Shown: positions 54,775 to 57,677, counted from the first letter of the stretch. The stretch is 64,000 bases of DNA from a bacterium (GCA_037200965.1 JBBCGK010000001.1:433992-497991); one strand, 5' to 3'. The notes: generated by a model not told the origin, from the letters alone. A program made the numbers and translations.

Positions 54775-55372
54775 AAACCATGAGAGAACCCGAGTTGATC
54801 TCGGTGGCCACGATCTTCAAAGGCGACAACTCGTTAAATTCCTCATAGTTCAGGTCAGCGAACCGAATTCGATCAGGCACTCCATCGTGATCACGACCAT
54901 TTGCGGCATATAATTCCCGCATACGTTCTCGAAGAACTGTGTTGATGAATTCACGAATGGGCGTTGTGGTGAAAAAGCCTAAGTGCCGCCATATGCGCAG
55001 CATTCCAAACGTAACTAGGGGAGCTGTTAAAAAAGACAATAATACACCCCCCAACGCCGTAGCGGACAATGCCCATCGAAGTCCCTGGCGGAGGCGAACA
55101 AATCTACGCCAATCATCAGCCCCCAATAACGTTACGGGGGTCAAGTTATGTAGGCTGAGAATATTTTGATCCCTAATGTCGGGATTCATCAAAGTCGAAG
55201 CACTGTATCCCGCCGCGACTAGCGTTGCCACGATCGCGCCAGCTGACGCCCCGGCTACACCTACGAAGGCGAGCCCATTCTTCGCGGCACCCTCCAAAGC
55301 ACCAATATGCGCTATGCCCTTAGCACCGCCACCTTCGAATATGCCAAAGGCTGGCCTCTTAGCGTCCATCAC
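54775..55372 (-). pseudogene. Patatin-like phospholipase gene fragment, 3'-truncated at repeat 5
   Basis: GIFEGGGAKG oxyanion hole and GASAG serine motif are present. The sequence stops at the repeat (…TEINSGSLMV|repeat) before the expected DGG catalytic-Asp motif. Confidence 0.65.
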
Positions 55373-55505
55373 TGTATGTATCCTTTCGCAAATCAGGTCG
55401 GGGCCTGCACAAACGACAGAACATCGGACAGGCTGGTGAAATAATGAGATACCAGCCTTCGCACATTGCTGTTCCGCATACAGATACAGCAGTTGCTAGT
55501 TCAAA

Positions 55506-57077
55506 TCAGTTCAGTTGCTCCCGCACCAACGAAAGATCGTTGAACAACGTTCTCGTAAGATTCGGGATTTTTTCCAGTTTGTCTGCTTGTATTAACTTCG
55601 CCATAAAACGAATGCTTCCCTCCACTCGCTCGTCATAGAATATTTCGTGCAGAAACTTCCGCCCCTGCCGCAAATCCGTAGCATCAAACAGAAATTCCAG
55701 CTTGGCTTCGTTATCGACCATAGCAACTGCACGCCAAAAGAATCGAGGAAAATTCGCTGTCAGGAGGCTCTTGCGGACTATCTTGCTTAGGGAGGAGCGC
55801 GAAACAATCTCGCGTTTCAGATCGCTTGGGCCATTCAAAAATATGTCCCACTCGAAACGAGCCATATCACTATTGCTCGATAATTTTTTAAGCATCTCTA
55901 AAATATGATCAAATGCCAGGATAGCATCGTACACGTCGTCAAATCGGACGCGAATTTTGCTATAGAGCGGCACGAGACACAAATCCGCGCGAGCACGGGT
56001 TATCTTCGTCCCACGCTTTCGAGACCAAGTTGTCGTTATGATGTTAGATGGGCCGCTCAGCTTGATCTCAGAGTATGGGCCGATGCCGTCGTCATGCGCA
56101 TACAGTTTGGTTATGCGCGTCGCCCGTAGAAGAAAACCCGTGCGAGGTTCGGGTACTATGGGACCAGTTGTGGGCCCAAGGCCGCTGAGTGCGACCGCGT
56201 GAAATGCTCGTTTGCTTTTCTTGGAGCGTTCTAAGTTGAAGTCAAAACTCAGAATGATCGGAATATTGCCCCTCAAGAATGCATTTGCTGCGGCTTGGAT
56301 ATTGGCTCGCTCGGGCGTCATAAACAAATCCGCTTCGAGACCGACATTGCGCAAAACGCCAGCCATTTGATCGATATCCAAGCCGTCGTTCGGGAGAGCT
56401 AGGCCAGCTGTTGGCAGCGAAGCAAACGCTCGTTTGGTTATTTCAATAGGTGATAAGATTGGATTGTCATACAAATTCGCCGTGCCATGCAGTGTAGTCC
56501 ACAGAGCGCTGGTAGCGCATGCGCCAACCTCTCGGTCTTGTTCTTGAAAAGGCAGCGCACGTACAGGCAGATCTATGCCGAAAAGATTTGGTACATATCC
56601 GCGCTCAGTGAGGAAGCGACTCGATGGATTACTCCCAACCGGCGCCAAACACGTTCGCCCAATGATGGTTTCGGGAAGAGGTTTGACAACTACAAAGCCG
56701 TGATATCCCAAGACGTCGAACCTACACTCACCGCGGCCCGAAACGAAAAGCGCTTCGACCATATCTTTATCGAACGGTTGCCGAAAAAAGTGAATTCGTG
56801 AACATTCTTTCGGATAGTTCGCGTGGCATCTCGCGTAGTATCCTGTATGATCTTCGGCGAAATGCTTGTCGATGTAGTCGCGCTCAAATACAAGAGTTTC
56901 GATTTTCGCGGCTTCACAGTAACGAGCTAGAAAAATGACCTGGGGCTTTTGTGCAATTTGCTCCAGTCTAGGTTTAAATGCTCCGGCAACAAAAAGCGCT
57001 ACCAAGTTCTCTCGATTGTACTTGAGTACTTGGTAGCGCTCGCCCATGTGATCTAACTGAATATCCGCGTACGTCAC
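55506..57077 (-). CDS. Hypothetical protein (523 aa), possible Cys/His peptidase-like
   Basis: Low-GC ORF; ...VGACATSALWTTLHG... candidate Cys...His pair. Middle gene of a three-gene block with 4-nt overlap to the upstream gene. Confidence 0.45.
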   Translation of the reverse strand: MTYADIQLDHMGERYQVLKYNRENLVALFVAGAFKPRLEQIAQKPQVIFLARYCEAAKIETLVFERDYIDKHFAEDHTGYYARCHANYPKECSRIHFFRQPFDKDMVEALFVSGRGECRFDVLGYHGFVVVKPLPETIIGRTCLAPVGSNPSSRFLTERGYVPNLFGIDLPVRALPFQEQDREVGACATSALWTTLHGTANLYDNPILSPIEITKRAFASLPTAGLALPNDGLDIDQMAGVLRNVGLEADLFMTPERANIQAAANAFLRGNIPIILSFDFNLERSKKSKRAFHAVALSGLGPTTGPIVPEPRTGFLLRATRITKLYAHDDGIGPYSEIKLSGPSNIITTTWSRKRGTKITRARADLCLVPLYSKIRVRFDDVYDAILAFDHILEMLKKLSSNSDMARFEWDIFLNGPSDLKREIVSRSSLSKIVRKSLLTANFPRFFWRAVAMVDNEAKLEFLFDATDLRQGRKFLHEIFYDERVEGSIRFMAKLIQADKLEKIPNLTRTLFNDLSLVREQLN

Positions 57078-57538
57078 ACTGTGAACGGGATACGCCGACG
57101 GTCAGGAGAAATCTGGTTGGCTTGTTCTCGACTTTCAATTGCCTTGAGCATTGGCGAAAGACGCTTAGCGACTTGCGCAGTAAGATCAGTTCTGGAGGCC
57201 GTCGCCTTGGACTTGGGCCGTGCAGAACTCTTCGTCTTTTTGTGACGCATAGCGCAACCTCCAATTTCGGTGAGCAGGATGTTGCCCTCAGTTCCAGCCC
57301 GGCGGGTATAAACTCCAACACGGGGATCAAAATCAAGCTCATGGACTTGACTTCCTGGAACGGGGCCGCCTAGGGCTCCCCTGTAACGAATCAGCCCTGT
57401 TCTTAACGTACCACGAGCGCCTTCGTATCCCCAATATTTTGTATGTGGATAATCCACCAACACAAGTTCTTTGAATGGTGAGGCTGGCCGTTGCCTTTCC
57501 TCAGTGGCGTCGCCGTCCGTTGACCCAATCGCCTGCAT
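57074..57538 (-). CDS. Hypothetical protein (154 aa), first gene of the cassette operon
   Basis: Overlaps the 523-aa gene by 4 nt. Confidence 0.4.
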   Translation of the reverse strand: MQAIGSTDGDATEERQRPASPFKELVLVDYPHTKYWGYEGARGTLRTGLIRYRGALGGPVPGSQVHELDFDPRVGVYTRRAGTEGNILLTEIGGCAMRHKKTKSSARPKSKATASRTDLTAQVAKRLSPMLKAIESREQANQISPDRRRIPFTV

Positions 57539-57677
57539 AACAATTTAATGCCTTCCTTCTGGCAGCAGACCACTAGGAGCGGCAGACGGCCGTTCATTAT
57601 CAGCGTGGATCATTGGCTGGACCGAGCCCCAATCGGTGACTGATTCGTACGGCTAAAGACCGCTCGGGTCAACTAAG

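Follow-up and report, generated by a model that had tools for sequence, protein, structure and literature searches.

By definition, CRISPR adaptation captures DNA in short pieces of a set length. Canonical Cas1-Cas2 complexes measure the length of the prespacer and enforce that of the spacer, and canonical arrays hold near-uniform spacers of ~26-72 nt. Patescibacteria, which have tiny genomes, had been considered nearly devoid of CRISPR. Integrons stack kilobase-sized units in tandem, the newest lying nearest to the integrase gene; these units are ORFs that are complete, mostly lack a promoter, and share one orientation, and they are joined by the IntI tyrosine recombinase at attC and attI sites. 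Casposons use a Cas1-family integrase to insert kilobase DNA with duplication of the target, and a casposase, a Cas1 homologue, is reported to accept and integrate diverse DNA substrates (PMC7786333).

The window analyzed here (the whole stretch of DNA, 64 kb long) belongs to a Patescibacteria (CPR) chromosome from a genome of ~960 kb. It contains six perfect copies of a 36-nt repeat, which reads GTTGCACAACCTCCTTTTTACGAACGATCCTGCAGG on the + strand, where shuffled sequences are expected to contain none. The array is located between metG and tatD, begins 32 nt past a stand-alone cas1-cas2 operon, and has five spacers (1 to 5) of 2.2, 10.9, 1.5, 1.4, and 2.9 kb (range 1,375-10,933 nt). We focused on spacer 5, which a sequence-only reading of this DNA had described as a repeat-bounded, leader-proximal block of low GC. 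This description was accurate, in that identical repeats flank the spacer on both sides, the spacer is the one proximal to cas, and its GC is 0.506 compared to 0.59 for the cas-side flank. We consider it probable that 54775-57677 is the newest unit of a CRISPR-like array made of kilobase units of foreign DNA that were added by Cas1-Cas2 at the leader-repeat junction. The features of the locus, beginning on the cas side, are as follows.

58039-59094, minus strand: cas1 (351 aa); Pfam Cas_Cas1 1.1e-63, profile positions 24-281 of 283
57746-58042, minus strand: cas2 (98 aa), 4-nt overlap with cas1; PADLOC Cas2b 9.4e-7 and six other Cas2 models
57714-57745, minus strand: leader, 32 nt from the cas2 stop to the first repeat, ending ...ACGGACT
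57678-57713, minus strand: repeat 6, leader-proximal; cas-strand reading CCTGCAGGATCGTTCGTAAAAAGGAGGTTGTGCAAC
54775-57677, minus strand: spacer 5, a putative captured foreign fragment of 2,903 bp
57251-57538, minus strand: N-terminal part of a 154-aa ORF, probably non-coding, upstream of a two-gene module
57074-57250, minus strand: small partner gene (58 aa) with a basic N-terminus and the C-terminus ...SPDRRRIPFTV; GGAGG 7 nt 5' of the ATG
55506-57077, minus strand: 523-aa protein with a central papain-like cysteine-protease domain and N- and C-terminal domains
54775-55372, minus strand: patatin-like phospholipase gene fragment, first 199 codons, C-terminal third missing
54739-54774, minus strand: repeat 5
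53364-54738, minus strand: spacer 4 (1,375 bp); phosphoribosyltransferase-like ORF truncated at its 5' end and a 173-aa ORF
53328-53363, minus strand: repeat 4
51780-53327, minus strand: spacer 3 (1,548 bp); phage tail-fibre-like gene (446 aa) and a fragment of a paralogous upstream gene
51744-51779, minus strand: repeat 3
40811-51743, no strand assigned: spacer 2 (10,933 bp, GC ~0.60); TrwB/TraG-like ATPase, ATP-grasp, S1/P1 nuclease, NS endonuclease, LysR, and GNAT genes
40775-40810, minus strand: repeat 2
38595-40774, no strand assigned: spacer 1 (2,180 bp, GC 0.485); short gene resembling adenylosuccinate synthetase, 250-aa ORF, and a reading frame still open at the boundary
38559-38594, minus strand: repeat 1, leader-distal, 16 nt from the tatD start codon

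Cas1 scored 221 bits with the generic NCBIfam cas1 model TIGR00287 (cut-off 71.7), and no subtype-specific NCBIfam model reached its own cut-off. The best PDB match to Cas1 was 7cr6 (1.8e-31). Three conserved motifs (GLEG...ERY, NSALNYGYG, and LYHSE...LDLVEEFR) align with this solved Cas1, and we take them to be the catalytic motifs. Cas2 was recognized weakly, scoring 18 bits with Pfam CRISPR_Cas2 (cut-off 23.8), and had no match among PDB sequences. Of 29 distinct related loci, 22-26 have GGCT immediately 5' of the first repeat, and this motif is absent 5' of internal repeats. The ends of the 36-37-nt repeats form an imperfect inverted pair, CCTGCAC...GTGCAAC. Thus, the locus has features of a CRISPR adaptation array, namely a full-length Cas1 with an adjacent cas2, near-identical tandem repeats, and a conserved leader. 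It further resembles canonical CRISPR in the unique, mobile-element-rich sequence between the repeats and in variation confined to the leader-proximal side. By contrast, the spacers of these arrays (0.18-10.9 kb, median ~1.4 kb) are 5-300 times the normal length and highly variable, and with the exception of one locus, L028, they lie outside the canonical size range. The arrays are short (0-5 spacers), Cas1 fits no subtype model, and no effector or crRNA-processing genes are linked, whether in the 64 kb of the window or within 10 kb on the flanks of the related loci examined. Scanning 54600-59200 for promoter-like and terminator-like sites gave nothing above shuffle expectation, and an Rfam scan of the window returned rRNAs and a group I intron only, none of them inside the array.

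The Cas1 clade and the repeat family are shared by at least 13 further arrays from Patescibacteria and other phyla; the spacers of these arrays range from 183 nt to 8,016 nt (median ~1.4 kb). The repeats of these relatives are 37 nt long (CCTGCA..TCGCAAAAAGGA..TGTGCAAC) and lie directly 3' of cas1-cas2, and the loci with this repeat family have 50-85% Cas1 identity. The loci come from Kaiserbacteria, Saccharibacteria, Paceibacterota, Adlerbacteria, Taylorbacteria, FCPU426, and a MAG labelled uncultured proteobacterium. Close relatives share conserved sequence in cas1, cas2, the leader, and the first repeat only. With the closest ones (L006, L007, L037, and L054) DNA conservation ends exactly at 57678, the distal end of that repeat, and no spacers are in common. 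We found no published report, in the full-text literature, of kilobase CRISPR spacers, Cas1-linked cassette arrays, or long-DNA integration by Cas1-Cas2 in Patescibacteria. The exception in spacer length, L028, shares the repeat family and has spacers of 351, 37, 37, 38, 39, and 471 nt. This locus links the long-spacer arrays to ordinary CRISPR arrays; because its cas1 has decayed to a remnant of 39 codons, it is no proof that one enzyme makes both sizes.

The spacers of the window have a GC between 0.49 and 0.60, against 0.59 for the flank, and the array DNA has no match in the remainder of the window. Their content includes genes typical of mobile elements, such as the TrwB-like gene, LysR, and SpvB in spacer 2 and the tail-fibre-like gene in spacer 3 (phrog_3030, 9.5e-23), which has 379 relatives in IMG/VR contigs.

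Spacer 5 had been read as three genes encoding a 154-aa protein, a 523-aa protein, and a patatin. The patatin ORF (54605-55372, minus strand) reads through the repeat, and its match to Pfam Patatin (4e-13) spans 2-118 of the 191 profile positions. It has weak matches to PlpD, ExoU, VipD, and an anti-phage phospholipase model. The GGGAKG and GASAG motifs are present, corresponding to the N-terminal GGGxKG oxyanion and GxSxG nucleophile motifs of patatin-like defence effectors (anti-phage phospholipase NF053870, PlpD/ExoU-type). In contrast to those effectors, the copy in spacer 5 is without the C-terminal third that includes the catalytic Asp. Homology with full-length relatives stops exactly at the junction (...LKIVATEINSGSLMV), confirming the earlier view that the repeat removes the 3' end of this gene. 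Because the gene ends at the repeat junction, the DGG motif with the catalytic Asp is absent and the Ser-Asp dyad is incomplete, the GASAG nucleophile being kept. The patatin copy is a gene fragment, not an effector.

The two ORFs upstream of it are present as described and overlap by 4 nt. Nothing elsewhere corresponds to the first 96 aa of the 154-aa ORF, and no homology was seen between 57251-57538 and the upstream DNA in homologous loci, which have 144-426 nt of intergenic sequence at this place. The last 58 codons follow the GGAGG site and align with ORFs of 58-76 aa that precede homologues of the large gene in L001, L029, L030, L033, and L002. Their C-terminal motif is conserved among these small ORFs, and the gene is annotated as 58 aa in a second MAG (GCA_015655515.1). 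The 154-aa model was therefore rejected as probably over-extended, and the small gene is most likely 58 aa long (57074-57250). The large gene may start at Met11 (ATG at 57047), giving 513 aa as in the NCBI annotation.

Alignment of the 523-aa protein with 33 homologues showed that Q180, C187, H293, H328, D329, and D330 are invariant in all 33. C187 is at the start of a helix (186-203), and H293 and H328, both candidates for the catalytic His, are on strands. The family thus has an invariant Gln ~7 residues before an invariant Cys at a helix N-terminus, followed by invariant His and Asp on downstream strands, resembling clan CA peptidases such as staphopains (C47), C39-like, and UfSP/ZUFSP deubiquitinase-type enzymes. 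The catalytic domain has a papain-like fold of the clan CA type. The Cys...His pair proposed from the sequence was half correct: Cys187 is the conserved Cys, and His197 (LHG) was rejected as its partner, being His in just 18 of 33 homologues. Unlike known clan CA peptidases, the protein belongs to no Pfam or NCBIfam peptidase family at the sequence level and has additional N-terminal (~150 aa) and C-terminal (~140 aa) domains. The remote-homology search that had been suggested for it gave no PDB match, as the profile of the 33 homologues retrieved nothing from PDB sequences at E <= 10. The 58-, 154-, and 523-aa proteins had no match in Pfam, PADLOC, NCBIfam, or PHROGs (PADLOC-DB 2.0 at E <= 0.01). 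The 523-aa protein had none in phage genomes or IMG/VR, and its only plasmid matches were four distant ones (24-30% identity).

Again unlike clan CA peptidases, the large gene resides in defence islands. In six independent contexts, its neighbours include Bil, Hachiman, a TIR protein, an MmeI-type methylase with AAA_15, and M78/Mrr, in agreement with the defence association foreseen for these homologues. An ORF of 58-76 aa precedes the large gene in five of the six, and a patatin gene is adjacent in none. These results do not support an intact three-gene system, which we rejected on the grounds that the patatin never adjoins the protease gene elsewhere. Instead, the module consists of two genes, the small one and the protease gene, and is a widespread, as yet unannotated feature of defence islands. 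Judging by these neighbourhoods, it probably serves its original hosts as a protease-based system of an anti-phage or toxin-antitoxin-like kind, making the pair of small ORF and papain-like protease a candidate new anti-phage system.

Kilobase-sized, gene-bearing units stacked beside integrase-like genes are also what an integron-like gene-capture platform would produce. In such a platform the repeats would be recombination sites and the units selected functional cassettes, with spacer 5 a working defence cassette read from a cas-side promoter. Consistent with this, the genes of spacers 3-5 all have the orientation of cas1-cas2, and the module in spacer 5 is intact, keeps every family-invariant residue, and has relatives in defence islands. 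However, of 50 spacer boundaries examined, about half have a reading frame of at least 70 aa that continues into the repeat. Homology confirmed truncation for the patatin, for the phosphoribosyltransferase of spacer 4 (frame open at the repeat boundary, NCBIfam APRT match beginning at profile position 108 of 182), for the SpvB/FG-GAP gene of spacer 2, which is cut by repeat 3, and for one unit that comes from the interior of a TPR gene and has an open frame at both ends. Gene orientation relative to cas is ~50:50 across arrays, all four L006 units being antisense, and some units carry housekeeping-type genes (DnaX, CysRS). There is no IntI-type tyrosine recombinase next to the array and there are no attI or variable attC-like sites; the units are separated by direct repeats of 36 nt that are identical, as in CRISPR. 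The absence of any link between patatin and the protease module elsewhere is a further point against a selected cassette. The ends of 29 long spacers had no conserved motif, PAM-like bias, or inverted or direct repeats. The inter-repeat units across related arrays are arbitrary DNA fragments and are not cassettes in the integron sense, as they had been called. We therefore consider an integron-like platform improbable, and the presence of the module in spacer 5 is best explained by capture rather than selection for a cassette.

For capture by Cas1-Cas2, we propose that the enzymes of this clade integrate long double-stranded DNA at the conserved leader-repeat junction. The repeat would be duplicated upon integration as in normal CRISPR adaptation, but no ruler would set the length of the insert. 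The last fragment captured would be a piece cut out of another organism's defence island or conjugative element. It would have brought ~430 bp of upstream DNA, the intact module, and the first two thirds of the patatin gene, with the end of the fragment cutting off the catalytic Asp. The module would supply a basic protein of 58 aa together with one of 513/523 aa that has a papain-like Cys-protease core (Q180/C187/H293 or H328/D329-330). The proposal resembles casposon integration, with the CRISPR repeat as the target-site duplication. The locus differs from casposons in that Cas2 is present, PolB is absent among the annotated products, and the 29 long spacers have no terminal inverted repeats. 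Moreover, the DNA inserted is heterogeneous foreign sequence, not the element itself, and accumulates in tandem at one leader-defined site. Several observations count against capture by Cas1-Cas2. Known complexes measure the prespacer, whereas this one would have to hold two ends that are kilobases apart, Cas2 is weakly recognized, the array is unchanged between two independent samples, and several related loci stop at a single repeat, their 10 kb of downstream sequence containing no spacer. Look-ups of the exact proteins of spacers 5 and 3 returned the array itself only, and no donor with defined ends was found for any spacer.

The chances seem to us about even that this extends to a large clade of stand-alone Cas1-Cas2 modules that spans phyla (at least 120 protein clusters, at least 50% identity, centred on Patescibacteria) and inserts kilobase foreign DNA without a length ruler. 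The arrays would then be stores of genes and fragments from phages, plasmids, and neighbouring cells, serving bacteria of reduced genome as a gene-acquisition platform functionally analogous to integrons or representing a living intermediate from casposon to CRISPR, and spacer 5 would be a recently captured, possibly usable defence module. Spacers of 0.2-11 kb in an array family that Cas1-Cas2 keeps in the absence of a linked effector challenge the definition of CRISPR adaptation. If Cas1-Cas2 makes the inserts, it would be a natural integrase of kilobase DNA at a programmable 36-nt site and of biotechnological interest. This would also provide a testable model of the casposon-to-CRISPR transition and suggest a possible route of gene gain in Patescibacteria.

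It is also possible that Cas1-Cas2 is not responsible and that the locus is a conventional or decaying CRISPR array. The large segments would then have entered former short spacers by transposition or illegitimate recombination, or come by homologous recombination with repeat copies on phages or plasmids. The length control of canonical complexes favours this, as do the short spacers of L028 beside long ones in the same repeat family, and the cas1-cas2-repeat block is multi-copy in one MAG, suggesting recombination or mobility on repeats. The lack of change between the two samples is in keeping with it too. However, we found no mobile element bearing the repeat, the exact repeat having no matches in IMG/VR or GTDB representative genomes, and the spacers have no transposase-type ends, inverted repeats, or duplications. 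In the 14 arrays next to an intact cas1 all spacers are long. The repeats flanking long units are perfect copies, as duplication at integration predicts, and near-identical loci start to diverge precisely where the first repeat ends on its distal side, which is the canonical insertion point of Cas1-Cas2. Thus, we view entry by another route as unlikely and favour capture by Cas1-Cas2.

Since this genome was assembled from a metagenome, and repeats of 36 nt can mislead de Bruijn graphs, the array could in principle be a mis-join of unrelated contigs at the repeat, an explanation we rejected as having a negligible chance of being correct, because a Logan contig and a second MAG reproduce the structure. 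The Logan contig L035 from sequencing run SRR28211700 equals window positions 54746-57706 with 0 mismatches and includes 29 nt of repeat at either end. For spacer 3, Logan contig L146 is 1,604 nt long, which agrees by length with the 1,548-nt spacer plus repeat at both ends. The second MAG is a separate assembly, and its contig (GCA_015655515.1) is 99.975% identical to window positions 48039-64000 over 16 kb, with the same repeats, spacers, and junctions. The architecture recurs in at least 14 unrelated loci, including the pair L009 and L041 from different data sets.

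The block at 54775-57677 of the window, cassette 5, is flanked on both sides by the 36-nt sequence GTTGCACAACCTCCTTTTTACGAACGATCCTGCAGG (+ strand). This repeat occurs six times in the window with zero mismatches (starts at 38559, 40775, 51744, 53328, 54739 and 57678); chance would give none, and allowing up to 12 mismatches revealed no degenerate copies there. The last repeat is 32 nt from the stop codon of a predicted 98-aa Cas2, which overlaps a 351-aa Cas1. Cas1 is recognized by Pfam (1.1e-63) and passes the generic TIGR00287 model and no subtype model, and its conserved motifs align with those of the solved Cas1 7cr6. 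The Cas2 call rests on PADLOC Cas2b (9.4e-7), with Pfam below threshold. No effector cas gene is present in the 64-kb window. The repeats delimit five units of 2,180, 10,933, 1,548, 1,375 and 2,903 bp, numbered so that unit 1 is leader-distal and unit 5 (cassette 5) lies beside cas2. This 20.5-kb insert is placed between tatD and metG, with S6, RecA and FtsK farther along. The contents of the units are heterogeneous and look foreign.

Contents of the units in the window
Unit 1: short adenylosuccinate-synthetase-like gene
Unit 2: TrwB/TraG-like ATPase, two nucleases, LysR, GNAT, and a repeat-truncated SpvB/FG-GAP gene
Unit 3: phage tail-fibre-like gene (phrog_3030, 9.5e-23; 379 relatives in IMG/VR)
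Unit 4: starts within a phosphoribosyltransferase-like (PRTase) gene
Unit 5, 57074-57538 (-): ORF of 154 aa
Unit 5, 57074-57250 (-): 58-aa ORF, the last 58 codons of the 154-aa ORF (small gene)
Unit 5, 55506-57077 (-): 523-aa protein overlapping the 154-aa ORF by 4 nt (large gene)
Unit 5, from 55372: patatin ORF, its frame continuing through the repeat at 54739-54774

The ORFs of cassette 5 are present as a sequence-only reading had described them, and the low GC that it reported relative to the core also holds (0.506 for the block vs 0.59 for the cas-side flank). The unit 1 protein (38909-39940, 343 aa) comes from the oldest unit and is well short of the 416-position Pfam profile. Proteins of this type include the PurZ enzymes of phages with 2-aminoadenine (Z) genomes; the likeness would fit a phage origin of unit 1. 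Unit 3 contains two copies of a 74-nt segment that are 74% identical to each other (53046-53119 and 53174-53247). The two copies encode similar N-termini, one in the 446-aa tail-fibre-like gene and one in a truncated gene upstream, suggesting that the donor phage had two tandem paralogous fibre genes.

We observed this arrangement repeatedly in other genomes. A search of representative genomes and metagenomes with the window Cas1 returned 48 loci in which, wherever downstream sequence exists, cas1-cas2 is followed after ~20-35 nt by a 37-nt repeat. A single repeat family is present in these loci, CCTGCA-N8-TCGCAAAAAGGA-N3-TGTGCAAC, the ends of which form an imperfect inverted pair. Where there is more than one repeat, the spacing is again mostly at the kilobase scale. 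For 33 spacers, those of the window included and those of L142 and L145, which were added later, excluded, the median is ~1.4 kb and lengths range continuously from 37 nt to 10.9 kb.

Spacer lengths (nt) in related loci
L006, Kaiserbacteria: 1332, 1379, 1340, 2377
L008, Saccharibacteria: 1290, 670
L009 (same sequence as L041), Paceibacterota: 1262, 1482
L010: 1337
L012, Adlerbacteria: 4242
L014: 673, 2279, 1228
L015 and L016, FCPU426: 3503 and 3477
L020, Taylorbacteria: 1038, 1429, 2058, 1472, 2873
L028 (identical to L061), Buchananbacteria, distant, same repeat family: 351, 37, 37, 38, 39, 471
L039: 7672
L048: 183
L142: 8016, 1086
L145: 7008, 591, 756

Near the L028 array (16661-17892) there is a 39-codon cas1 remnant (10001-10120), and the 351- and 471-nt spacers of this array hold small ORFs. 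In several loci the array is empty, consisting of a lone repeat. Four of these loci (L011, L021, L022 and L026) contain cas1-cas2 and a single repeat with no second repeat within 10 kb downstream, and look like empty arrays; the Cas1 match in L026 is partial (residues 1-153). The Cas1 clade comprises 458 proteins at E <= 1e-20, in at least 120 clusters with 50% or more identity. Many members are known solely from contigs 1.2-2.4 kb long, roughly the length of cas1-cas2 with its repeat; this would fit with short-read assembly stopping at the repeat or at some multi-copy unit. A 1.5-kb block (9899-11402) was seen in L014, L017 and L022 as three copies within one MAG (MFD05512.bin.1.167) at 99.7-99.8% identity, with unrelated flanks on either side. 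It opens with the hairpin-like TTGTCCACGACGGGGACCCTTCGTGAACAAC, continues through cas1 and cas2, and finishes at the end of the first repeat; its length is near the median spacer length. The observation also concerns L013, L015, L016 and L021. It is possible that the cas1-cas2-repeat unit is itself mobile or present in several copies. L017 also has a lone repeat copy with one mismatch (3038-3074), 8.3 kb upstream of the cas-proximal repeat, so that cas1-cas2 is flanked by two repeats. The sequence directly after this copy is 81% identical to 6045-6645, which has no preceding repeat.

By our own tally, an open frame of at least 70 aa enters the repeat at about half of 50 unit boundaries. Truncation was confirmed by homology for the patatin, PRTase and SpvB genes and for a 673-nt unit that is an internal fragment of a TPR gene, open at both ends. 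Genes point with or against cas about equally often (units 3-5 of the window are sense, 4/4 L006 units antisense), and genes of housekeeping type, including DnaX and CysRS, are found in some units. Conserved bases, inverted repeats and direct repeats are all absent from the unit ends. The units are arbitrary pieces of DNA; they are not gene-centred cassettes. An integron-like platform of functional cassettes is an improbable alternative, since genes are truncated at the unit boundaries, orientation is mixed, the sites between units are identical and a tyrosine recombinase is absent.

With its closest relatives, whose Cas1 is 84-85% identical, the window shares DNA similarity solely over 57678-59097/59130, which spans the first repeat, leader, cas2 and cas1, with none beyond. 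In a group of loci 93-99.8% identical to one another, the shared sequence runs precisely to the distal end of the first repeat and no farther. The junction is conserved: GGCT immediately precedes the first repeat in 22-26 of 29 distinct loci and is absent before internal repeats. These limits, together with the GGCT junction, are the signature of leader-directed insertion with repeat duplication, which is the reaction of Cas1-Cas2. Leader-directed insertion would make cassette 5 the newest unit. We infer that Cas1-Cas2 would itself insert long fragments at the leader-repeat junction, duplicating the repeat, and that the enzymes of this clade would act without a length ruler. As a precedent, casposases, which are Cas1 homologues, are reported to integrate diverse DNA substrates (PMC7786333). 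The window locus resembles casposons in having a Cas1-family enzyme with kilobase inserts and target-sequence duplication, but it has neither the terminal inverted repeats nor the PolB of casposons. It shares cas1, cas2, repeat and leader with CRISPR loci but departs from them in spacer length and in having no linked effector. Against insertion by Cas1-Cas2, Cas2 is only weakly recognizable and the handling of two distant DNA ends has no structural explanation. No donor sequence was found for the units, and no acquisition was observed between two samples (the window MAG and GCA_015655515.1).

Long DNA might instead have entered by homologous recombination through the repeats or by being inserted into former spacers. 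We regard this as unlikely because no mobile element bearing the repeat was found in IMG/VR or in the GTDB representative genomes, the spacers beside intact cas1 are all long, and the site of insertion is canonical. An assembly error is ruled out as the origin of the structure, with almost no probability left to it, by a Logan contig (run SRR28211700) that matches 54746-57706 with 0 mismatches and has both ends within the repeat, and by a separate MAG (GCA_015655515.1) that is 99.975% identical over 48039-64000 and has the same repeats and units. In a second sequencing run, a 2.26-kb Logan piece is identical to the block sequence. A 1,604-nt Logan contig for unit 3 fits, as a match of length only, the 1,548-nt spacer with repeat sequence at each end. 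Full-text literature searches turned up no account of CRISPR spacers of kilobase size or of comparable arrays linked to Cas1. The content of cassette 5 alone is of moderate interest; the array context makes the finding highly interesting.

The large gene belongs to a family with >500 matches at 35-49% identity, every one labelled "hypothetical" and none with a Pfam domain. Its NCBI start is Met11, giving a 513-aa protein, which agrees with the N-termini of homologues. Across 33 homologues 51 positions are invariant, including Q178-E179-Q180, C187, H293 and H328-D329-D330. A confident AlphaFold2 model built on this alignment (pLDDT 86.9, pTM 0.88) has C187 at the start of a helix and H293 and H328 on strands. 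The sequence-only reading had proposed a Cys/His pair; its Cys was right, as the invariance and position of C187 indicate, but we rejected the His of "LHG" as catalytic partner because only 18/33 homologues have it. No assignment was obtained for the domains flanking the core (N-terminal ~150 aa, C-terminal ~140 aa).

Homologues of the large gene lie in neighbourhoods typical of defence islands or mobile elements in the six contexts examined. Neighbours include a Bil system, Hachiman HamA with its helicase and an M78 peptidase in one context; a TIR-pentapeptide protein in L032; an MmeI-type methylase with an AAA_15 ATPase in another; HetE-N with PIN-TPR-GreABC and an Mrr/M78 protein in Pseudomonas; and RelA_SpoT with a TrwB-like protein and relaxase in L001. 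A 58-76-aa ORF precedes the homologue in 5/6 contexts, L032 being the exception with no such ORF called. The 3'-terminal 58 codons of the 154-aa ORF can be aligned with these small ORFs, with a C-terminal motif in common (window ...SPDRRRIPFTV; L001 ...ERRRIPITV; L029 ...SPERRREPITV). An internal ATG at 57250 is preceded by GGAGG at a distance of 7 nt, the annotation of GCA_015655515.1 calls precisely the 58-aa gene, and the first 96 codons have no match in relatives' DNA, Pfam, PADLOC, NCBIfam or PHROGs. Thus, the 154-aa gene model is probably an over-extension across the promoter region. The patatin fragment carries the motifs GGGAKG and GASAG. It is similar to full-length relatives as far as ...LKIVATEINSGSLMV, exactly to the repeat junction, and the catalytic-Asp stretch (DGG) is consequently absent, bearing out the earlier proposal that the repeat removed its 3' end. 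Patatin was never adjacent to the large-gene homologues in the contexts examined, so the conserved unit is a two-gene module. The proposed defence setting was found, but not an intact three-gene system. Cassette 5 contains a candidate new defence module and a patatin piece that is a dead fragment of whichever gene adjoined the module in the donor DNA.

The TrwB-like ATPase of unit 2 (41411-42724) resembles the TrwB-like gene of L001 (7806-9527), a contig on which the protease module of cassette 5 also has its closest homologue. Units 2 and 5 may derive from related conjugative elements.

On the cas strand, the ends of the window repeat (57678-57713) and of all related repeats form the imperfect inverted pair CCTGCAC...GTGCAAC, and the window repeat begins with the palindrome CCTGCAGG. 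It also has AAGGAGG 9 nt from its 3' end, resembling a ribosome-binding site; no ORF starts at a suitable distance from it in the window. The 23S rRNA gene of the window spans 4.3 kb (15891-20235) and contains a group I intron (16313-16529). The 16S rRNA match is in two pieces (1-837 and 1571-2093) ~730 nt apart, which suggests an insertion. Introns and insertions of these kinds in rRNA genes are typical of Candidate Phyla Radiation bacteria.
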